Assembly: GCA_963838765.1 (NCBI GenBank)
Contig: CAWISU010000076.1
Coordinates: 514-64,513 of the forward strand
DNA: 64,000 nucleotides
Direction of reading: 5' to 3'
Origin: an uncultured Acidobacteriota bacterium
Lineage (GTDB): Bacteria > Acidobacteriota > Terriglobia > Terriglobales > Acidobacteriaceae
Shown here: piece by piece, positions 4,157-53,368 of the stretch
How positions within the stretch are numbered: the stretch's first letter is position 1
How the letters are laid out: each line of letters begins with the position of its first letter
The notes under the pieces: model-generated
Databases searched by the model: none
Seen by the model: only the letters and a program-made list of their open reading frames with translations
What the model was told of the DNA's origin: nothing
Position numbers and translations under genes: made by a program

Positions 4157-4241
4157 GCGGAAGTGGTGGAACTGGCAGACACACCATCTTGAGGGGGTGG
4201 CGCCGAAAGGCGTGGGGGTTCAAATCCCCCCTTCCGCACCA
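4157..4241 (+). tRNA. tRNA-Leu (anticodon GAG), CCA encoded
   Basis: Acceptor stem gcggaag/cttccgc. Anticodon stem ccatc/ggtgg with loop ttGAGgg. Long variable arm cgccgaaaggcgt. T-arm ggggg-ttcaaat-ccccc. 3' end ACCA. Confidence 0.9.
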
Positions 4242-4509
4242 GTTTTACAATTCTTATCTATATTGTGCAATTTTGAGTTCTATGTATTCGGGTTTGCTTT
4301 CTGGATCATTGGGATGGTGCATGGAGAGCGAATTTCGTTTCAGGCGATAAGAGGCTGCTAAAGCGCGCGCGCATTTCAACGACTCAACGGCCCGACTGAA
4401 GTCGGCCCCTCGCCAAAATCTGCGGGAATCATAGTTTTTCAGCAGCCTTTAAAAGCCGCGCACGGGAATCCATCCAGCCACTTGCCGGCATAACTGTGGG
4501 CTTGTTCCG

Positions 4510-5151
4510 GTGGGGCGCGGGTGTAGAATAGCTGCCACTTGCGCACACTTAGGGGCTAGTGTCTTGCAATTCCACAAATTCAATGAGGCGTATTTGGAGC
4601 GGCTATGTTCGGGTGACTTCCGGACGGAGAGCCATTTTGTTGCCTACTTCAGTGAGCTGATCCAATTGAAGCTGCGTTCCCGGGTGAATTCTCCTCATAC
4701 GATCGAAGACTTGCGGCAAGAAACCTTTGCCCGAGTGTTCACTGCTTTACGAAGTGAGGGGAGATTACGACAGCCGGAACGGTTAGGAGCTTTTGTGAAT
4801 TCCGTTTGCAATAATGTGTTGCTGGAGCACTATCGGTCGTCTTCTCGAGAGAATCCGATGGAGGAGGAAGACAGCCAGAATGTTCCTGATCCATCGCTGG
4901 ATGTGGTGTCGATTTTGTCGCATAAAGAAATGGAGCAGAAAGTGCGGCAGGTTCTCGATGAATTGTCGGAGAGAGACCGGCGTCTGCTGCGCGAGATATT
5001 CCTAGAAGAACGCGACAAGGACGCGGTGTGTCAGGACTTTGGCGTGGACCGGGACTATCTTCGAGTGCTGCTTCATCGCGCCAAGCAGGCCTTTAAGGCT
5101 GTGTATTTAAAGAACATGGCGGCGGGCATACGGAGTACGGCGGCGGGCTAG
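4510..5151 (+). CDS. ECF-type RNA polymerase sigma factor (start codon uncertain; GTG at 4510 or a downstream TTG)
   Basis: Sigma-2-like region (EDLRQETFARVFTAL) and a sigma-4 HTH (LSERDRRLLREIFLEERDKDAVCQDFGVDRDYLRVLLHRAKQAFK). Confidence 0.8.
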   Translation: MGRGCRIAATCAHLGASVLQFHKFNEAYLERLCSGDFRTESHFVAYFSELIQLKLRSRVNSPHTIEDLRQETFARVFTALRSEGRLRQPERLGAFVNSVCNNVLLEHYRSSSRENPMEEEDSQNVPDPSLDVVSILSHKEMEQKVRQVLDELSERDRRLLREIFLEERDKDAVCQDFGVDRDYLRVLLHRAKQAFKAVYLKNMAAGIRSTAAG

Positions 5152-5202
5152 GACGGTGAAACGATTTGTCTTGTCTTTTCACTATCCATTCGAGGGGGAT
5201 TT

Positions 5203-5886
5203 GTGGTGATGGACCATAGCGAATCAATCCGCCTGATGGCTGCCGAGAAGTACTTGCTCGGCGAGCTTGCGCCGGAGTTACGCGAGCAGTTTGAGGAACA
5301 CTTCTTCGACTGCCAGGAGTGCGCTCTCGATGTTCGAGCGGGAGCTGCGTTAGTCGAACATAGTAAGGTCGTATTGTCGGAGCCGGTTGCGGTTTCGCAG
5401 GCGAGAGTGCCCGTTCTAGTGCCCGCAAAGCCAGGTTGGTTTGGGTGGTTACGTCCCGCGTTGATCGTGCCGGTTCTTGGGGTGCTGCTGGTGGTAGTTG
5501 GGTATCAGAACCTGGTGACCTATCCGCAATTGAAGCAGGCGGCCAACAGCCCGCAGATTCTGCCGTGGGCCTCGGTCAACGTGAGCACAAGGGGGACCAG
5601 TACAATTCAGATCTCGCCCGGCGCTGGGCAGGGCTTCCAACTGCTGGTGAACATCCCCCCGGACAGCCGCTACACCTCTTACACTTTCGACTTGTCTAGC
5701 CCGTCAGGAAGACTAGAATGGTCGCACACGATTCCCGCAGCGGCATCCGACGAGGCGCGGTCGATTTATATTCCAGGGGCGAATCAGGAGCAAGGCATTT
5801 ATAAGCTGGCGGTACGCGGCAATACGGCTACCGGAGAAAGTTCAGACCTCGGCCATTATTCGGTTGAAGTGCAAATTCAGAAGTAG
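5203..5886 (+). CDS. anti-sigma factor, zf-HC2 type, single-pass membrane protein
   Basis: N-terminal HFFDCQECALDV putative zinc-finger motif, followed by a hydrophobic span (LRPALIVPVLGVLLVVVGY) and an extracytoplasmic domain of about 120 aa. It lies 52 nt after the sigma gene. The ATG at 5209 sits about 10 nt after the GAGGGGGA SD and is probably the true start. Confidence 0.7.
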   Translation: MVMDHSESIRLMAAEKYLLGELAPELREQFEEHFFDCQECALDVRAGAALVEHSKVVLSEPVAVSQARVPVLVPAKPGWFGWLRPALIVPVLGVLLVVVGYQNLVTYPQLKQAANSPQILPWASVNVSTRGTSTIQISPGAGQGFQLLVNIPPDSRYTSYTFDLSSPSGRLEWSHTIPAAASDEARSIYIPGANQEQGIYKLAVRGNTATGESSDLGHYSVEVQIQK

Positions 5887-5908
5887 CTCAATCGAGCGGA
5901 GGCAACAA

Positions 5909-6810
5909 ATGGCAACAGCAATGAAACCACCCATGCCGAGAGAAGATGCGGAAAAAGAGCCAACCCACATCTACTACGCCGACGCCTATGTTCTGAAGCG
6001 CAAATTTCGAGGCACCCGTGCATGAGGAGATCAAACCGCGGGCGCAAGTCAGATTGTCCGAGGACGGCCACTACGAATTCAGGCAGGCCGAACCCTTCCG
6101 GCTGGACGGGCTCATCTCGTACCGCTCGGGCTACACCCAGGTCGCGGGACACCGCAGCACCGAAGCCAGGCCACGGCTTCGCCACGCTGGCGACTTCCGT
6201 GCTCGAGGACCTCAATGTTCTCGACGTGCTGACAGCGGATCGAGTGGTTGCGCAGATTTCCACGGAACACCCTGTCTACGATCCCGAGAATGGGCAAACG
6301 GATGGAGTGCCCTCGGTTAGTTTCTTGGGTACGCGTTTCGACAATTTGAGGATTGACGGGCACAAGATTGAATTGGAACGGCACGTCGATATTCTGGGGC
6401 CTAAGCCAGCTGGCGGAAGATCCTATTTTGAAGACCAGGGCGTTCTGAGCCGGATCTCCGAGCAATATGAGAACATAAACGACGCCAAGGATCTTCCCGA
6501 TTGGGCGAGTGAACGATATCGCTGGGATCGCGCCAGCGCTCAAAAACAGCCCGAGTTGAAATGCTCTTTGGTGAATCGCGTCAGTGGTGCTCCGGGAATA
6601 CAATTCGGACACGTGATCGAAGTGCCTCACTTTGGCAAGATATTTCTGGCCGAGCTAAGACTAAAGCGCGAAAAAAACGGTGGACCCGGGCCGGAGAAAT
6701 ACAGCTTTCACTTGACCATGATCCGGATGGAGCTAGGATGTCCGGTGCAGGGCAACGGCAGTGCCGGGAGCGCCGATGCAAATGGCAGTGGGGGCAGCGG
6801 CGGGCACTAG
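5909..6810 (+). pseudogene. conserved-looking protein of unknown function, coding sequence spread over three frames (two +1 breaks)
   Basis: ATG 5909 (frame 2) reads MATAMKPPMPREDAEKEPTHIYYADAYVLK and then stops. Frame 3 continues SANFEAPVHEEIKPRAQVRLSEDGHYEFRQAEPFRLDGLISYRSGYTQVAGHRST. Frame 1 continues PGHGFATLATSVLEDLNVLDVLTADRVVAQISTEHP... to the stop at 6810. Confidence 0.5.
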
Positions 6811-6832
6811 AACTGCAGATGGGGCACATGTA

Positions 6833-7936
6833 TCATGCGATGCGAGAATTTGCCTGGTCTACCGAGTATCTGATCCTCGCATAGGCCAAATTGATGTTGC
6901 GAGTCCACTTTTTTATCGATACGGGGTCCTTGATCTCGCGCGCCAGTGCGAGCGCTCGCTGATAGTAAGAAATTGATGTGAAATAATCGCGGCGGTGCAG
7001 GTAGACGTTGCCAATGTTGGCCAGCACGACCTGGTAATTGTGGATCATCCCGGCCTCGTAGTTTACGCGCTCTGCCTTGCGGAAGAGCTCCATGGCTTTC
7101 TCGTCGTCTCCGAAACCCAGGTAGCAGACTGCGAGTTCACCCCATACCATCGCAATCCGTAATGGCGCGCCAGCATTTTCAAAAATTCCGAGCGACTGCT
7201 CCAGCCAAGGCATTGCTTCCTCATAGTGTTCCTGGATCATTAGGTTTTTACCGATACCCCAAAGGGCACTGCCGCGCAAACGCCAGCCGTCGACGAATTC
7301 CGTGAGTTTCAGGGCCGAGCGGAACAATCCGTCAGACGAAACATAGTCTTTCTGAAGAAAGAAGATGAAGGCTCGGGAAAGATGAACGTCGCCAAGAAGC
7401 CTTAGCAAATTCGCATCGTGGGCAATGATTTCTGCTTCAGCAAGCAAACGGTGCGAAGGCTCATACCGGCCTAGAGAACCCAAGTACGAGCCACGGTGCA
7501 TTCTGAGTGCAGCTTTCGACTCAATGTCGTGGTCAGCCGGCGGTACCAGAGACTCCAGGTATTTCAAAGCGTCCTCGACATGGCCGTGGGCGTTTAGAAC
7601 ATCGGCTCGAATGAAACGAAATCGCCAAAGTTCAGTTGAATTGTCTTTGTCTCCGAGCCGTTGAATTTCTGCCTCTGCGATCTTGTTCGCCGCATCCAAA
7701 TCGCCGAGGCGTTGCAGGTCGGGTGCTTTGCTCGTGGGCGGACTGTGCCATGGCGTCTCCCGGAACAGATCAAATAACCAAAATCGGTTGTCATTCCGAA
7801 CTGTTTCAGCCCGTGAGTTAGTTGACCCGAGACAGCTCCGAGGAGGCGCATGCTCATTGGCCTTCGACTTCTCGGAATGACAACCGAGAGGCGTTGCAGC
7901 CAGACTAGCGACCGTCGCTGCCCGTCCCGTCCGCAT
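6833..7936 (-). CDS. TPR-repeat protein
   Basis: 367-aa ORF with repeated 34-aa TPR-like units (..YEEAMPWLEQSLGIFENAG.., ..DDEKAMELFRKAERVNYEAG.., ..YFTSISYYQRALALAREIKD..). The N-terminal 60 aa are doubtful; see the 7905-8099 fragment. Confidence 0.7.
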   Translation of the reverse strand: MRTGRAATVASLAATPLGCHSEKSKANEHAPPRSCLGSTNSRAETVRNDNRFWLFDLFRETPWHSPPTSKAPDLQRLGDLDAANKIAEAEIQRLGDKDNSTELWRFRFIRADVLNAHGHVEDALKYLESLVPPADHDIESKAALRMHRGSYLGSLGRYEPSHRLLAEAEIIAHDANLLRLLGDVHLSRAFIFFLQKDYVSSDGLFRSALKLTEFVDGWRLRGSALWGIGKNLMIQEHYEEAMPWLEQSLGIFENAGAPLRIAMVWGELAVCYLGFGDDEKAMELFRKAERVNYEAGMIHNYQVVLANIGNVYLHRRDYFTSISYYQRALALAREIKDPVSIKKWTRNINLAYARIRYSVDQANSRIA

Positions 7937-8099
7937 CTGGCGGGTGGAAGGGTCCGGGTTGTGGGTTGTCGGCAGTAGCTACATGCCGATTGCCTGCGCC
8001 GCCCAGTTCCGCTGATGGCACAGTCTTTGCGCTGCTCTGGTAACCGAGCAGCAACAATACGGGGGTGAAATAACCAAACATGCGTCGTGCACTAAACAT
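7905..8099 (-). CDS. signal-peptide-bearing 64-aa ORF, probably the true N-terminus of the TPR protein separated by a +1 frame break
   Basis: A strong SD (AAGGAGG) lies 8 nt before the ATG. The ORF begins MFSARRMFGYFTPVLLLLGYQSSA, a signal-peptide-like sequence. It overlaps the TPR ORF by 32 nt in the frame offset by one. Confidence 0.45.
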   Translation of the reverse strand: MFSARRMFGYFTPVLLLLGYQSSAKTVPSAELGGAGNRHVATADNPQPGPFHPPDADGTGSDGR

Positions 8100-8179
8100 A
8101 CTTTGGCCTCCTTGGGGGAGGGATTATACAGAAACTTTTCCGATTTTCAAGTTAAAATCTAGCGGCGAATGAATCCCCC

Positions 8180-10719
8180 ATGCCTCCTTCAATCCAGCAC
8201 CAAGACTCCAGCCGACAGGGAAGGTGCAAGTGTGTCCGAGCGCGAGCTCTGGGAATTATGCCGCTCATCCTAGGGGTCGCCCTGTTGCCGTGCTGCTCGC
8301 GCCAACGCGATCCTCACGCCGCTTTCGATCATGCCAGGCAAACGCTTCGGAAAGGCGACACGGTAGCTGCGGCCTCGGAGGCAGAGAAAGGCTACAAGGA
8401 TTTCCACACTATGAGCCCTGAGTGGGCATGGAGATTCGCCATCCTTCGGGCGTGGGCTCTGCACTCGCGTGGGCTGAACGATGACCTGCTAAAGCTGCTC
8501 AGCTCCGAGGTGGTCCCACCCCCCAACGCTGAATTATCCGTTCAAAAACTAAGGTGGGAAGGCGTCGCCTTCGCTTCTCTGCACAAATTCCCGGAGGCGG
8601 AACAAAAGTTCGGAGAAGCGGAGCGCATCTGCGCTGCGTCCAGCTATCCCGCCTGCGCGGATGTGGTGGACGCGCAGGGAAGACTCGAAATGGAACGCGG
8701 TCACTATGCCAAAGCCCAAAGCCTCTTCGAGCGGGTTCTCGGGTCGGCCCGCGCGAGCGGGGACCCACTGTGGGAGGCCGGCGCGCTGCTGGCTTTGAGT
8801 TGGTCCGCAGACGAGCAGACTCATTTTGACGAGGCTCTCAACTGGGCAGATGCCGCCCGTCAAATTTCTGTGGCTCAGAACTTTGGTAGCATCGCGCAAA
8901 CCGCCTCAGGCAATATGGGTTGGGCTTATTACAAGCTTGGCGATCCGGAGAAGGCATCGGAGATGTTTGTCGAGGCGGCAAAGCAGGCCGAGAAACTCGG
9001 CGACATCACGGATCAAGTAAAGTGGCTTTTAAACGTTGGGTACGTTTACCTGGATAGCCACGACTTCCCGGCTGCCGAGCTTTCCTTTCGGCAGTCGCGC
9101 GACCTTGCAGTTAAAGTCAACAGCAGAGAAGACATCATCAACGCCTTGCAGGCGCTAGCCTTCATCTCTCAGCAGACTAGTAAGCTGGATGACGCGAAAC
9201 ACTACGCCGACGAAGCGCTCTCCATGGCGAAAGCCGATGGTAATAAGCGCGACGAGGTCTATCCCCGGCTTGTGCAAGGGCAAGTTGCGGCGAAAGAGCA
9301 CGACGTTGCTGCAGCCGAGAGCGCGTTCCGCGAGGTTTCGCAGGCTGAGGATAGTCCGGTGTTTCTGAAGTGGGAGGCGGAACGGTCGCTCGCGCGGCTA
9401 TATGAAGACGAAAACCAGCCAGAGTCGGCCGAGCGGGAATACCGGACTGCGCTCAGTACCTTTGAGACCGCTCGCTCGGGGCTGAAGCATGAAGATTCCC
9501 GGCTGCCGTTTCTTACTAACGCCTCGCGTATTTACGACGACTACATTCATTTTCTTGTTTCTCGGGGAAAGACCAGCCAGGCTTTGCAAGTTGCCAATTA
9601 CAGCCGCGCCCGGACCTTGAGCGAAGGGTTGGGGCTGTTGCCGAAGGGAACCTCATTTGCCCCTGATCCGCTGAATGCGCAACAGGCCGCTGGACGCGCC
9701 GGCGGCACAATCCTTTTTTATTGGCTGGGCGAGAAGCAATCTTATCTCTGGGCGATCACGCCGCAGAAAACCAGTCTGTTTCAGCTTCCTCCCGCGGCGG
9801 AGATCGATGCGGTCGGTGCAGCGGTATCGAAAGGCGCTGGTTGGTCCGCAGGATGTTCTCGAAACTGCGAATGCCGATGGGATTGAGCTTTACAGAATGC
9901 TCGTCTCCCCGGCACGAGTGCTGCTGACGAAAGATGCGCAGGTCTTCATCATCCCGGATGGCAGCTTGAATGGTTTGAACTTTGAGACCCTGTTGGTGCC
10001 GGAACCTAAGCCGCACTATTGGATTGAAGACGCGACTATCGCCGATGCCAGTTCGCTCCGGATGCTCGCAGGGTCACAAACGCGACATGACTTAAAGACT
10101 GGCGCGGATAAACTGCTGCTCATCGGCGACGCGGTTGCGTCGAGTGCTGAATATGGCGAATTGCCAAAGGCGGGAGTGGAAATTGAAAATATCGAAAAAC
10201 ATTTTCGCGCCCGCGAAACGCGCGGTTCTTACACGAGCGCAAGCCACCGCTCCGGCTTACCTGGGGAGTGTCCCGGAACAGTTCGCGTATATCCATTTTG
10301 TGGCGCATGGCACGGCCAGCCGCCTGAGTCCGTTGGACTCCGCGGTTATATTGTCGAAGGCTTCGGCGGAGGAAGATTCTTTCAAACTGTACGCGCGAGA
10401 CATTATTCAGCGCCCCTTACATGCGGAGCTGGTGACGATTTCAACCTGCTATGGGGCGGGCGCGCGAGCCTACACAGGAGAAGGATTGGTGGGACTCTCG
10501 TGGGCATTCCTGCGGGCGGGCGCGCACAACGTGATCGGCGCGCTGTGGGAAGTGAGCGATGCTTCGACCCCCCGGCTTATGGACCAACTGTATGGCGAAC
10601 TGAAGCGGGGCCGAAGTCCACAAGCGGCACTGCGTTCGGCGAAGCTTTCTTTACTGCACTCTGATGACTTCCGCAAGCCCTTCTACTGGGCGCCGTTTCA
10701 GCTCTACAGCGGTACGTAG
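8180..10719 (+). pseudogene. TPR-repeat / CHAT-domain (caspase-like protease) protein, about 846 aa if joined, frame broken twice (+1 each)
   Basis: ORF 8180-9886 is TPR-rich with a hydrophobic N-terminus MPLILGVALLPCCS (internal ATG at 8258). The reading continues in ORF 9675-10664 (VQRYRKALVGPQDVLETANADGIELYRMLVSP...LLLIGDAV) and then in ORF 10135-10719, which carries the CHAT catalytic dyad context YIHFVAHG (His codon 10306-10308) and VTISTCYGAG (Cys codon 10447-10449). Confidence 0.75.
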
Positions 10720-11297: not shown

Positions 11298-13755
11298 ATG
11301 AAATCTGCCAACCTGGTGCAGTATTTTCGGCACTCTTTCCGCTTATTGCGGAGATCGCCCGTGTTTTCCGCGGTGGTGATTCTCATGCTCGCGCTTGGAA
11401 TTGGCGCGAACACGGCGGTGTTCAGCGTGGTGGACGGAGTTCTGCTGCGAAAGCTTCCCTACCGCGATCCGGATCGTCTGGTCATGGTCTGGGAAAAGAA
11501 CCCTGCGCTGGGGACGTCGATTGGCGAGCGCATCCCTGCAGCTTATACGAACTTCGCTGAATGGGTGAGCCAATCCACGGCCTTCGAGGGCATCGCGGGC
11601 ATGGAAGACGCGAACCTGAACCGCACCGGCGGTGGCGAACCGGAGCGCGTAAACGGGGCACGAATTTCACCGAACTTCTTCCAAGTGCTGGGAGTGAACT
11701 CGGCTATCGGCACTACTTTCGACTCAGTCGAGCAGGGATCCCGTGACACCCAGGTGGCCATTCTGAGCGCCGCCTATTGGGAGAGCCATTTCGGCGGAAG
11801 GCGCGATGTCATTGGCCAAACTGTCACGCTTAATGACGTTCCTTACACCATTGTTGGCGTGCTCCCAGCGCATTTCTATTTGCCGTCCACGCGAGAAGGC
11901 ACCGAGCAGCGAAAGCCCGACATCTGGATTCCTTATGAGCCCATGGCGCAGCGCACTACGCTGGAATTGAACCGACTGAAGGTGCAGGTCTACGCACGAT
12001 TGCGTCCGGGCATTTCGCTGGAGCAGGCGCGGGCAGAAATGGATGTGATTGGCAAGCGCTTGGAAGAGCAGATCCCCACTCTCAATTCTGGCTTTGGGGT
12101 AAATATTTTTCCCGTGTACGTCGAGGATGTAGGCAAGGATCTGCGCCGCAACCTTCTCGTGCTGTTGTCGGCGGTGGGTTTGATTCTGCTGATCGCATGC
12201 GCAAATCTGGCGAATCTGGTATTGACGCGTGCGATGGCGCGGCAGAAAGAGCTGGCAGTCCGCAAGGCGCTCGGGGCAAGCCGATCGGAATTGATCGCGC
12301 AGATGGTCGTGGAAAGCCTGGTTCTCAGTTCGATTGGAGGGTTGCTCGGTTTGCTGGTGACGCGCTGGGGAATTCGAGCTATTCTCGCGCTCAAGCCAGC
12401 GGACATTCTGCGCCCGGAACAAATTCATATAGGCATTCCGGTGCTGCTGTTTACGACCGGGGTCAGCATACTTGCGGGCATGCTCTTCGGGATTTTTCCT
12501 GCGTTGTATGTTTCGCGCACCGAGGTTATTACGGTTTTGAATCAGGGCGCGCAATTGACTCGGACCCATCCGCGAATCATGCGTGCGGCTCTCATCGTGA
12601 TCGAAGTCAGTTTGGCCTCGGTGCTGTTGATCGGGGCTGGATTTATGATTCGCAGCCTGCTTTCGGCGCTCGACGTCGACCCGGGGTTTCGTCCGGATCA
12701 TTTGTTGACCATGCATTTCAGCATGCCGCCCGATCGTTACTCGAGCAAGTGAGCAGACAGCTGCATTCTGCCGTCAGGCATTGGAGCGAATCGCGGCGCT
12801 ACCCGGGGTTAATGCCGCCAGCTTTGCCGATGGCTTGCCGCTGACCCGGATTCGTCTGATGCGATTCACGGTCGAGGGCCAGGCAGTTCCTAAGCGCGGA
12901 AGTGAGCCAACAGCAGACATGCGCGGGATCAGTTCGCCGTCGTACTTCGGGACTTTGGGGATCTCGCTGGTTAGCGGCAGAAACTTCACCGTGGATGAAA
13001 TCAATCAAAACCTTCCGGTGATCGTGGTGAATCAGACGCTCGCGAAAAAGCTGTGGCCAAATCAAGAAGCGATCGGCAAACATATCTGGAGCGTTCCGGC
13101 CAGAGCGGAAAAAGTGCCGGTGGAGTTGACGGTGATCGGAGTGGTGCGCGATACGCGGCAGATGTCTGTCGAGAGTGCGACGCGACCGGAGATTACGCGG
13201 CCCATGCAGGACTACACCTACTTGACGCTTGCGGTTCGCAGCGCCGCGGATCCGACCTTGCTGACGGCGAGCGTCAAGCGGCAGATTTGGGCCCTCGACA
13301 AAGACCTGCCGGTGTTCGACGTGCTGACCATGCAAGATGTTCTCGACGACAACCTCGGACAGCGCCGCTTCGATTCATTTCTCATGAGCATCTTCGGGGG
13401 GCTTGCGCTCGTGCTGGCTTGTGTTGGCATTTATGGCGTGCTCGCTACCACGGTGGCGCAGCAGACTCGTGAAATCGGGGTTCGAATGGCTCTGGGTGCA
13501 CGCCGGGGCGATGTGCTCAGAATGATTATGGGGCAGGGTTTGCGATGGGTATCGATTGGCCTGCTTATCGGTTTGACTTTGGGATTTTTGCTGACGCGAA
13601 TGCTCGCGAGCCTCTTGTTCGGGGTTGGCCCCTCGAACCTGCTCACCTATATCGCCGTCAGCGCTGTTATGCTCGCGGTGGCAGCGGTGGCCTGTTACTT
13701 GCCGGCTGTTCGTGCCATCAGGATCGATCCCATGCGGGCTTTACGCTACGAATAG
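11298..13755 (+). pseudogene. ADOP-family (MacB-like, duplicated FtsX) ABC transporter permease, one +1 frame break near 12744-12752
   Basis: ORF 11298-12752 contains MacB periplasmic core plus FtsX half 1 (MKSANLVQYFRHSFRLLRRSPVFSAVVILMLALGIGANTAVFSVVDGVLL...). After ...PPDRYSSK* the reading continues in the +1 frame as SEQTAAFCRQALERIAALPGVNAASFADGLPL... (ORF 12781-13755), which contains the second core plus FtsX half. Confidence 0.8.
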
Positions 13756-15002: not shown

Positions 15003-15079
15003 TGGAGGCCCCGGGCGGAGTCGAACCGCCGACCAACGGTTTAGGAAACCGCTGCTCTATCCAACTGAGCTACGGGGCC
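15003..15079 (-). tRNA. tRNA-Arg (anticodon CCT), CCA encoded
   Basis: The reverse complement is ggccccgtagctcagttggatagagcagcggtttCCTaaaccgttggtcggcggttcgactccgcccggggcctcca. The cloverleaf arms all pair: acceptor ggccccg/cggggcc, D gctc/gagc and T ggcgg/ccgcc. Confidence 0.9.
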
Positions 15080-52104: not shown

Positions 52105-53368
52105 CTAAGGCGTGGCGTGAAACAGCGTTCCGAAACTTGCGAATCCGCCGAGCATCATGCTGCCATAGAGATCGTCATGCGAACCTAAAGTCACGCCCGT
52201 CGGAAAAAATCCATCTGTGTTTCGTCCCCCCGTCTGCTCATCGAAATCGTAGAGGTCGGTATACTTCCCCCTCGTGTCGATTCTGAACAAGCATCCCGTA
52301 TTGTGAGCGCCGTCGAATTTTTGGGCGCCATACAAGTTGCCTTTCGAGTCCCTCACCAGGAGGTTGGCAAAGAACGAAGAACGGGTGATCGGCGGAGTAA
52401 AGGTGAACAGCACGCTGAAAGCGCCAGTCTTGGTGTCGACCTTGAAAATGGTTCCGTAGCCATCGGGGCTGCCGTGGTGATCTCCGCCCCCTGATGCAAT
52501 GCCATAGAGGTTGTCTTCCGAGTCGATAATCACACCCAGAGGGCCGGCGCCGTCTTTGTGGTTGCTGAACGTGTGCAGTACGGTGTACTTGCCGTGGACA
52601 TCCACTTTGAAGATGGTTCCGCAGCCGGGGGCATAATTATTACGGTCGCCCACGGCCCGGCACGCGCGGATGCCGCCAAACATAGCAGCGCCGTACAGGT
52701 TGCCTTTACTATCCCGCACCAGGCCGCTTTCTGGATACATTCCATCCGTTCCCTTAAAGGTGTGGATTGTCGTGAACTTGCCGTTTGGGGTCATCTTAAA
52801 CAGGGTTCCGCAGCCCAACCCGTGATAGTCCCAACCGCAATTGGGTGTGCCTCCGTAGGGAACCATGCCATAGACGTTGCCTTTCGCGTCCAAGGCGACA
52901 GGGGAATCTAAGGAGCCGAAATTGACGCCGGCCGAAGGGGCGTAGGATGTCTCCTGGCCTCCCGGAGTAAGCTTGTATACCACCGACAAGCCAAAGAAGC
53001 CGCTGCCCTGAGTCGTCCCATAGAGGTTGCCACTAGCGTCCCGAACCAAGGCCGGCGATCGGATAGACGCCATTGTTCCCGGCAGTGAAGTCGTAGAGAT
53101 CTTTGAGCTCGCCAGCGCGGTTGACCTTGAACACGTACCCGCAACCGAAATCACAGAGGCTGCTACCACCAGCTTCGGCTGCGCCATACAAATTGCCTTC
53201 CGCGTCCCGGATCAGCGGAGTAGGATACACGCCATCTGCTGAACCGGTGAACGTATGCAGAACCGTGTAGTGGTATTGCGCATTCGCCGGCAGGGCGGCG
53301 AGTACCGTCAACAACAACGTGACGAATGCGACACGATAAAAAGTGCTGCGGCATCTCTTGCTTAGCAT
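52105..53368 (-). pseudogene. second GloVer tandem-repeat secreted protein, +1 frame break near 53040-53060
   Basis: The start is the complement of 53366-53368, with the SD GAGGGA upstream. The product begins MLSKRCRSTFYRVAFVTLLLTVLAALPANA plus the first repeats and ends ...VYPIAGLGSGR*. The +1 frame continues VRDASGNLYGTTQGSGFFGLSVVYKL... as ORF 52105-53187. Confidence 0.75.

Follow-up and report, generated by a model that had tools for sequence, protein, structure and literature searches.

The DNA analysed here is a 64,000-nucleotide stretch (the window) of contig CAWISU010000076.1, from an uncultured bacterium of the Acidobacteriota, and it carries a compact cassette of genes (Table 1) for a sigma factor of the extracytoplasmic function (ECF) type, a single-pass anti-sigma factor, a protein of the family DUF8256 and a protease of the TPR-CHAT type, in which tetratricopeptide repeats (TPR) are combined with a CHAT domain. 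A previous sequence-only reading had described the region as a five-gene module. On comparing the locus with its relatives, we found instead that the conserved unit consists of four co-directional, closely spaced genes, encoding the four proteins named above, to which a divergent pair of genes is optionally added; the divergent TPR gene, counted as a core member in the earlier description, belongs to this two-gene accessory unit and occurs at only about eight of 80 related loci (~10%). The earlier reading had also been unable to assign the arrangement to a described pathway, but a closely related one has been reported, namely DdvS/DdvA of Myxococcus (PMC11506125), and Csx29/Csx30 (PMC10028731) offers a further precedent.

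Table 1. Features of the cassette and its upstream region, numbered from the first nucleotide of the window (aa, amino acids; nt, nucleotides; ORF, open reading frame; ZAS, zinc-binding anti-sigma factor).
Feature	Position	Strand	Remarks
Distal motif GATGGTGC-N-TTTCGT	4313..4338	+	Candidate sigma-dependent (autoregulatory) promoter or operator
Proximal sigma-70-like promoter TTGTTC-N16-TAGAAT	4502..4529	+	Followed by AGGGG (4551-4555) and TTG (4564)
ECF-type sigma factor, ~195 aa	4564..5151	+	ORF open from 4510; conserved start TTG 4564
Single-pass ZAS (zf-HC2) anti-sigma, ~225 aa	5209..5886	+	ORF start 5203/5209; cytoplasmic HxxxCxxC domain, one transmembrane helix
DUF8256 (PF26784) protein, ~299 aa after repair	5909..6810	+	No signal peptide; two single-A insertions
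DUF8256 breaks, inserted A	~5996 and 6159	+	Relative to four orthologues
Accessory TPR protein, predicted cytoplasmic, ~305 aa	6833..7751	-	TPR_12, TPR_2 and related families; start ATG 7751-7749
TPR break, inserted A (coding strand)	~7728	-	24 nt past the true ATG
Small ORF, 58-64 aa	7905..8099	-	Signal peptide and ~40-aa mature peptide; accompanies the accessory TPR gene
TPR-CHAT caspase-like protease, ~845 aa after two repairs	8180..10719	+	PF12770 and TPR families; lipoprotein-type signal
CHAT breaks, inserted T	9813 and ~10202	+	Relative to four orthologues

The first gene of the cassette had been recognized from its sequence as that of an ECF sigma factor, and profile searches confirmed this, with scores of 54.4 bits against TIGR02937 (cut-off 42.9) and 24.5 bits against Sigma70_r2 (cut-off 24); the match to Sigma70_r4_2, of 18.7 bits, lay under the cut-off of 25.7, and no NCBIfam equivalog reached its own cut-off. 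The best matches among PDB sequences, which were weak, were to SigE and SigR, and judged by sequence the protein has the features of the ECF (group IV) sigma-70 factors. Alignment with 69 orthologues placed its true start at the TTG codon, behind an AGGGG Shine–Dalgarno sequence. The main text of the ECF classification of Casas-Pastor et al. (2021) does not mention CHAT; genes for CHAT and subtilase proteins do occur in the surroundings of the group ECF54, but this group is described without an anti-sigma factor, and the cassette differs in having one. The product of the second gene, proposed earlier to be a zf-HC2 anti-sigma with a single membrane span, scored 23.6 bits against PF13490 (cut-off 22.2), and its family consensus, FEEHfFdCqeCA, contains the HxxxCxxC motif. 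All but one of 77 family members have one transmembrane segment (76/77), and the periplasmic part measures 117–140 amino acids across the family, with a mean of approximately 125. The gene lies directly downstream of the sigma gene at nearly all loci and, with this position and its N-terminal HxxxCxxC, the predicted protein conforms to the ZAS type.

The TPR-CHAT protein combines a TPR array of more than 450 amino acids with a CHAT domain that matches PF12770 over nearly the full length of the profile (positions 6–287 of 289, E = 4.7e-47, 161 bits). Its His/Cys dyad, judged intact in the sequence-only reading, is formed by His709 (HFVAHG) and Cys756 (ISTCYGAG/STCYG), and, because all 73 sequences compared have both residues, the protease should be catalytically active. 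The hydrophobic or lipoprotein-like N-terminus proposed before was also borne out: in most orthologues a basic segment at the very start is succeeded by a hydrophobic one and then by a lipobox Cys, behind which stands a conserved RRDPQ-type motif, while those of the Terracidiphilus clade have an uncleaved hydrophobic signal anchor instead of the lipobox. Since the N-terminus carries either a lipobox or a signal anchor, the protein is predicted to lie outside the cytoplasm, in the periplasm. The lipobox in the window (8291–8296) reads LLPCCS, compared with LPGCS in close orthologues, and this replacement of Gly by Cys before the lipid-modified Cys is unusual. The region of the dyad Cys aligns weakly with the MGCSS motif of separase, which we take to hold the separase catalytic Cys; a sequence kinship of the TPR-CHAT protein to DdvA, Csx29 or separase was considered and set aside, this marginal match being all that was found.

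The third gene encodes the protein of about 300 amino acids to which the sequence-only reading had been unable to give a function. The protein is present, and it now has a Pfam family, DUF8256 (PF26784), for which precomputed matches are found on all close homologues and on the window's own 262-amino-acid fragment (P0017). A word-indexed search returned 974 homologues, up to 84% identical and all of them intact, with about 295 amino acids, and the family forms 814 clusters at the 50% identity level. The protein has neither a signal peptide nor a hydrophobic segment, and, because it lacks a signal and is fused elsewhere to cytoplasmic domains, it is by every indication cytoplasmic. Its transport to the periplasm together with CHAT, by Tat ‘hitch-hiking’, was rejected as an idea, as the twin arginines of the CHAT signal are not kept across clades. 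An AlphaFold2 model computed from an alignment of 100 diverse sequences had a predicted local distance difference test score (pLDDT) of 92.9 and a predicted template-modelling score (pTM) of 0.89; the choice of input mattered, since 40 close homologues gave a pLDDT of 58. In the model, long beta strands running antiparallel predominate, and there is a short helical insert. When it was submitted to Foldseek, nothing significant was returned from the PDB (best E = 0.012, template-modelling score, or TM-score, ≤0.21) or from BFVD, and profile searches of PDB sequences, PADLOC and NCBIfam gave no match; nor did we find any mention of the family in the papers searched. These blanks in Foldseek, the profile search, PADLOC and NCBIfam led us to reject the identification of DUF8256 as a gasdermin, a pore former or any known fold. 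As regards gasdermins in particular, there was no match to the PADLOC bGSDM model and none by Foldseek, even though the PDB contains the gasdermin structures 7N51 and 8SL0. A motif near the C-terminus, GC...NGxG, is conserved and, in fusion proteins, Gly-rich linkers come after it. Conserved positions also include TADR, E99, N102 and N145, a putative surface.

In order to compare neighbourhoods, we took one genome per species, called the ORFs around the best 80 of 548 loci found in this species-level scan for DUF8256 relatives, and searched them with the five proteins of the window; relatives were also present on at least 545 metagenome contigs. The best 80 loci belong almost entirely to Acidobacteriota (Terriglobales, Sulfotelmatobacter, Terracidiphilus and Solibacter), with one labelled Eremiobacterota. 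The exact order sigma, anti-sigma, DUF8256 and CHAT, on one strand, was seen at 55 of these 80 loci, and the departures from it are mostly contig ends or sub-threshold sigma matches. Taken singly, the anti-sigma gene is immediately upstream of DUF8256 at 78 loci, the CHAT gene adjoins DUF8256 at 77, and sigma orthologues were found at about 69, so that the families clearly occur together outside this genome. The same four-gene layout is found with a second DUF8256 subfamily (305–330 amino acids) and at distant metagenome loci, for which three of 80 neighbourhoods were inspected by hand. Because the gene order repeats at nearly all of the 80 species-level loci, the arrangement is well beyond chance. 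The genes are also tightly packed: the spacing between anti-sigma and DUF8256 is approximately 22 nucleotides, and as few as 57–69 nucleotides lie between the DUF8256 stop and the codons for the N-terminus of mature CHAT, so that the two genes overlap in some clades.

The genes flanking the cassette vary from locus to locus and are of ordinary types, such as those for cytochrome P450, MacB-type permease, efflux pump and kinases; in the window, the flanks hold a tRNA-Leu gene and genes for a P450, a fatty-acid desaturase, a MacB-type permease and outer-membrane barrels. The tRNA-Leu(GAG) gene (4157–4241, plus strand) lies about 320 nucleotides upstream of the sigma gene, and a tRNA-Arg(CCT) gene (15003–15079, minus strand) lies about 4 kb past the cassette, so that tRNA genes bracket the cassette together with the permease gene; the GC content is unremarkable and no integrase was seen. 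No cas genes occurred among the called genes of the listed loci or in the scanned flanks of the window, where no search for CRISPR arrays was made. Identity among the loci broadly tracks their taxonomic labels, which suggests that inheritance has been mostly vertical. One pair of labels is at odds: L041 (a GTDB representative, Candidatus Sulfotelmatobacter) and L004/L005 (an NCBI metagenome-assembled genome, Eremiobacteraceae) share one gene set, in which the lengths of the ORFs and the accessory TPR protein are identical, and one of the two bin labels is probably wrong.

In the window, the DUF8256, TPR and CHAT genes are interrupted by frame breaks, as the sequence-only reading had noticed. 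By DNA alignment with four or five intact orthologues we located five of them, each a single +1 insertion of A or T, and no internal stop, deletion or rearrangement was found in the cassette genes. The earlier reading had left the choice between a decaying and a mis-assembled module. Decay is unlikely, because the repaired proteins retain every column that is at least 95% conserved (55/55 in DUF8256 and 165/165 in CHAT), and sequence or assembly error fits the data; given that all the breaks are +1 A/T insertions in genes otherwise perfectly conserved, they are probably errors of this kind. The five breaks do fall within 6.2 kb, and a further +1 frame change splits the adjoining MacB-type permease gene (11298–13755, plus strand, with two MacB_PCD-FtsX halves) into 11298–12752 and 12781–13755, whereas ORFs of 2.9–3.6 kb elsewhere in the window are intact, as might be expected if the local cassette were a true pseudogene cluster or the region chimeric. 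We consider this very unlikely, however, since dozens of intact loci have the same genes in the same order, which excludes a chimera, every highly conserved residue is kept, and insertions of A or T alone, with no in-frame stops, deletions or rearrangements, are a signature of technical error. A crude codon-usage scan, too insensitive to pick up even the known breaks, flagged possible frame changes at 52105–53310 and at ~28635, both on the minus strand.

Two elements stand upstream of the sigma gene. The first is a proximal promoter of housekeeping type, whose TAGAAT element (TGCTA[AC]ACT in other clades) is kept 37–43 nucleotides upstream of the sigma start at more than half of 70 loci. The second is a distal motif, GG[AG]ATGGTGC-N14-TTTCGTT (also written GGAATGGTGC-N14-TTTCGTT), which two separate clades possess, with one occurrence per locus and in every case upstream of the sigma gene; it has one copy in the 64-kb window compared with 0.02 expected by chance, and it may be an autoregulatory site. 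Rfam found only the tRNA-Leu in the conserved leader upstream of sigma. In the window alone, an insertion of ~100 nucleotides, absent from close relatives, parts the distal motif from the proximal promoter, and it contains a GC-rich hairpin, GGCCGAC..GTCGGCC (4380–4408, plus strand). A further conserved block with an inverted repeat, GGTTTGCTTCGCGAGTGGACCCGCGAACAAGAACC, is found about 200–240 nucleotides upstream of sigma in L008–L021 (for example, L008 8446–8480); in close relatives it lies upstream of the distal motif, and in the window it is missing, with the tRNA-Leu gene in its place.

These upstream elements bear on whether the cassette proteins act before or after the sigma factor. Autoregulation is common among ECF operons, which also tend to include their own main targets, and ZAS anti-sigmas of the RsrA and ChrR classes sense redox directly. 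The anti-sigma might likewise sense a signal of its own, either envelope stress or redox via its zinc, and DUF8256 and CHAT would then be sigma-induced products standing outside the sensing step, one a cytoplasmic effector and the other a protease serving defence or quality control in the periplasm. The resemblance of the four genes to a single operon is in keeping with this, as is the distal motif, if it is a sigma-dependent promoter. The proximal promoter, in contrast, implies constitutive co-expression of all four genes, as for a sensing apparatus; the TPR array is of a size that suggests regulated recognition rather than bulk proteolysis; and in the DdvA precedent the TPR-CHAT module is on the input side. 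We therefore regard the placing of DUF8256 and CHAT on the output side as unlikely.

Outside the cassette, DUF8256 occurs in other lineages as the N-terminal part of fusion proteins with domains of the TIR, subtilase (S8), trypsin-like (GDSG) or CHAT type, the last without a signal, or else it precedes three transmembrane helices. At one locus (L178, 2529–5989), a DUF8256-CHAT fusion of 897 amino acids is followed, 3 nucleotides downstream, by the start of a bacterial gasdermin gene, identified by Pfam Bact_GSDM, by PADLOC bGSDM (E = 5.6e-44) and by the PDB entries 8SL0 and 7N51; this is one example among the loci examined. An ankyrin-repeat gene lies upstream of the fusion. At L176 (4871–7296), a DUF8256-TIR fusion has an overlapping ORF of 124 amino acids, and in the vicinity of the DUF8256-subtilase fusion at L177 (1–12293) there are a trypsin-nuclease fusion, an AAA_16 ATPase and an integrase. 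Stand-alone long DUF8256 proteins (449 and 486 amino acids) also exist, followed by genes for signal-less CHAT-like or C25-like proteases; at L092 (8001–14549), a long DUF8256 protein precedes a cytoplasmic CHAT protein and a DUF7379 hydrolase, with type I restriction genes and transposases alongside. The C-terminal extensions of these long proteins bore no similarity to the anti-sigma's periplasmic domain. The link to conflict systems drawn in the earlier reading is thus well founded for the DUF8256 family, through its fusions to CHAT beside a gasdermin, to subtilase and to TIR. A further fusion, DUF8256-TM-TPR-CHAT (P0217; TM, transmembrane), with sigma and anti-sigma genes upstream, was not accepted as proof of topology, as it comes from an error-prone long-read contig with a fragmented dnaA and could be an indel artefact.

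Gasdermin-associated proteases typically bear sensor or repeat domains (bioRxiv 10.1101/2021.06.07.447441), and the L178 fusion, because it stands beside a distinct, bona fide gasdermin, indicates that DUF8256 occupies the place of a regulatory module rather than that of a substrate. On its N-terminal position on CHAT, subtilase, trypsin-like and TIR effectors, DUF8256 is most likely a regulatory or sensor module. The contrary view would make it a gasdermin-like toxin, cut by CHAT near its Gly-rich C-terminal tail so as to bring about death or dormancy, with the sigma/anti-sigma pair merely controlling expression. The partner proteases of DUF8256 (CHAT, subtilase and trypsin-like) do overlap the classes found beside bacterial and fungal gasdermins, and the predominance of beta strand in the model, the conserved GC...NGxG motif and the Gly-rich linkers of the fusions would suit such a role, but the model resembles neither gasdermins nor any pore-forming toxin at the Foldseek values given above, the L178 protein already has its gasdermin, and the TIR fusion fits poorly. 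Moreover, on the predicted topology, with CHAT in the periplasm and DUF8256 in the cytoplasm, the DUF8256 protein of the cassette cannot be a direct CHAT substrate, because it lies in the other compartment. There is, in our view, only a slim chance that it is a toxin of this kind.

The company that DUF8256 keeps elsewhere, which includes genes for type I restriction, transposases and an integrase as well as a gasdermin and TIR, might also point to a cassette controlling an immune regulon, in which TPR-CHAT would detect a phage-derived protein and DUF8256 a cytoplasmic cue. DdvS/DdvA, which controls CBASS (cyclic oligonucleotide-based antiphage signalling) and CRISPR-Cas, offers a precedent. 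The immediate surroundings of the cassette argue otherwise: the neighbours are ordinary and locus-specific, and no defence genes adjoin it in the window or at related loci. PADLOC has no model for DUF8256, we found no copy in viral contigs, and the mostly vertical inheritance is that of a housekeeping signalling unit. An anti-phage role accordingly appears quite unlikely.

The optional divergent pair consists of the accessory TPR gene and, always just upstream of it, a small ORF. The TPR protein had been described from the sequence as having a signal peptide; the minus-strand TPR gene is real, but the hydrophobic N-terminus belongs to the separate small ORF. The source of the confusion is the one-base insertion ~24 nucleotides past the TPR start codon, which shifts the frame and gives rise to a spurious upstream extension. 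Orthologues of the TPR protein have 305 amino acids, start with MA(L/Q)SAH and lack a signal peptide; the protein aligns colinearly with residues 47–314 of the neighbouring CHAT lipoprotein (27% identity, E = 3e-18), which make up the N-terminal TPR module of its mature form, and it appears from its sequence to be a cytoplasmic paralogue of this module. Its weak matches include RapF, RapH, NprR and AimR. The mature part of the small peptide reads GNRHVxxADNPQPxP..PPxxDGxG. Homologous ORFs, which share 19 invariant columns with it, are found in the same place at L019 (11894–12088), L004/L041 (9995–10165 in L004) and L027 (11887–12105), all on the minus strand. A strong, near-consensus sigma-70-type promoter, TTGAAA-16-TATAAT (8150–8123, minus strand), lies upstream of the small ORF. 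The tail of the secreted peptide (for example, DSDGGGSGGHH) resembles that of DUF8256 (DSNGxGSxGGH), although chance is a possible cause in Gly-rich sequence; the shared tail, D-x-[ND]-G-x-G, could be a ligand of the TPR modules in both compartments.

Building on the gene identities, the conserved linkage, the intact dyad and the predicted topology, we interpret the cassette as a proteolytic switch operating across the envelope, equivalent to the DdvA protein of Myxococcus split into two polypeptides, and we put the probability of this reading at roughly 0.45. In DdvS/DdvA, DdvS is the ECF sigma and the zinc anti-sigma bears a periplasmic TPR-CHAT domain, proposed to cut its own linker; removal of the domain exposes the protein to RseP (PMC11506125). 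In the cassette at rest, the anti-sigma would keep the sigma factor at the membrane. The periplasmic TPR-CHAT protein, we infer, would sense a protein or peptide cue by means of its TPR array and clip the ~125-amino-acid periplasmic domain of the anti-sigma, as a site-1 cleavage, whereupon a general site-2 protease and cytoplasmic proteases would release the sigma factor. DUF8256 would play its part in the cytoplasm, where it might act on the complex of sigma and anti-sigma or else be an effector expressed along with them, and this step is the least certain. The only co-encoded polypeptide predicted to be within reach of CHAT is the periplasmic domain of the anti-sigma, joined, in the accessory version, by the small secreted peptide. 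The sequence-only reading had likewise suggested a proteolytic switch, with CHAT cleaving the anti-sigma or the 300-amino-acid protein; the former remains a reasonable proposal, given the accessibility of the anti-sigma domain, whereas the topology opposes the latter.

Several observations weigh against such a switch. The analogy to DdvA is one of architecture only, as a full-length TPR-CHAT profile found generic TPR proteins alone, and no DdvA, among PDB sequences; and the CHAT activity of DdvA is itself a hypothesis, its dyad mutants being without phenotype and its signal unknown (PMC11506125). No site-2 protease gene was found within the cassette. Upstream of sigma, the best-conserved promoter is the one of housekeeping type, and the distal motif has a spacing longer than that of typical ECF promoters and, with no further copy within the 64-kb window, gives no pointer to a regulon. 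Lastly, the scheme has no need of DUF8256, though this protein accompanies CHAT and the anti-sigma at almost every locus examined and forms direct pairs with cytoplasmic proteases in other lineages. A possible, if doubtful, reading that does give it a place is that DUF8256 is a hitherto unrecognized sensor or regulatory domain of bacterial effectors of the caspase, subtilase and TIR types, and that its ancient pairing with a protease was, in Acidobacteria, divided between the two sides of the inner membrane and reconnected by way of the ECF sigma and anti-sigma. The result would be a two-sided switch, with the periplasmic TPR-CHAT and the cytoplasmic DUF8256 as inputs and transcription as output.

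The cassette would be a new form of protease-controlled ECF signalling; it is widespread in Acidobacteria (class Terriglobia) and abundant in bacteria that dominate acidic soils and peat, where signalling is scarcely known. DdvA is the one studied case of ECF control by a caspase-fold protease, with its protease activity and signal still unproven; in the cassette, protease and anti-sigma are separate proteins, which makes the site-1 hypothesis directly testable in vitro. DUF8256, for its part, ties the cassette to gasdermin, TIR and subtilase systems. To our knowledge, the way in which bacterial gasdermin-associated proteases are switched on is largely unresolved, and an N-terminal domain of new predicted fold on one of them provides a handle on how such proteases might be activated.

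Among known systems, the accessory unit alone invites comparison with the RRNPP family (Rap/NprR/PlcR/AimR), in which a small signal-peptide gene likewise stands beside a cytoplasmic TPR protein. The accessory unit differs in having no DNA-binding or phosphatase output domain, in the position of the peptide gene upstream of that for the receptor and in its Gram-negative-type host, and the likeness would appear to be one of layout only. With the bacterial gasdermin systems (bioRxiv 10.1101/2021.06.07.447441), where CHAT proteases also bear sensor or repeat domains, the shared link is the DUF8256-CHAT fusion of L178; in the window, by contrast, there is no gasdermin, DUF8256 is not one, and the protease is, by prediction, exported.

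Csx29, the TPR-CHAT protease of type III-E CRISPR, relieves the inhibition of an ECF-type sigma by cutting the inhibitor, Csx30 (PMC10028731). This Craspase system (Cas7-11, Csx29, Csx30 and CASP-sigma) shares with the cassette the linkage of TPR-CHAT to an ECF-type sigma and the presence of accessory proteins of unknown fold. It is, however, wholly cytoplasmic and activated by RNA through Cas7-11, and its inhibitor Csx30 is no ZAS membrane protein; no cas genes were seen near the cassette, which on this count would not belong to type III-E, and DUF8256 has no PDB structural match.

Classical anti-sigma proteolysis is exemplified by DegS/RseP acting on RseA, the anti-sigma of sigmaE in Escherichia coli, and by PrsW/RasP acting on RsiW, that of sigmaW in Bacillus subtilis. 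As in our model, a dedicated extracytoplasmic site-1 protease there removes the periplasmic domain of a single-pass anti-sigma on receipt of a signal. The classical site-1 enzyme is a serine protease or metalloprotease encoded elsewhere in the genome, whereas the cassette's own operon encodes the candidate, a cysteine protease of caspase fold equipped with a TPR sensor.

The closest counterpart is DdvS/DdvA, with which the cassette shares an ECF sigma, an N-terminal zinc-binding domain in the anti-sigma, one membrane-spanning helix and, in the periplasm, a TPR array followed by a CHAT domain with a His/Cys dyad, as well as the logic proposed for DdvA, that of a periplasmic protease serving as the site-1 step of regulated intramembrane proteolysis. 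The differences are nevertheless clear. DdvA is one polypeptide, whereas the anti-sigma of the cassette, with a small periplasmic domain of its own, and the TPR-CHAT protein are encoded by separate genes at every locus examined. The cassette has a fourth conserved protein, DUF8256, and no such partner figures in the description of DdvA/DdvS that we consulted (PMC11506125). The cassette occurs in Acidobacteriota, whereas DdvA-like fusions have been reported only from Myxococcota and one Comamonas, and it has no adjoining CBASS or CRISPR genes, unlike DdvS/DdvA. The cassette would thus not be a member of the DdvA family, although it may well work in the way proposed for DdvA.

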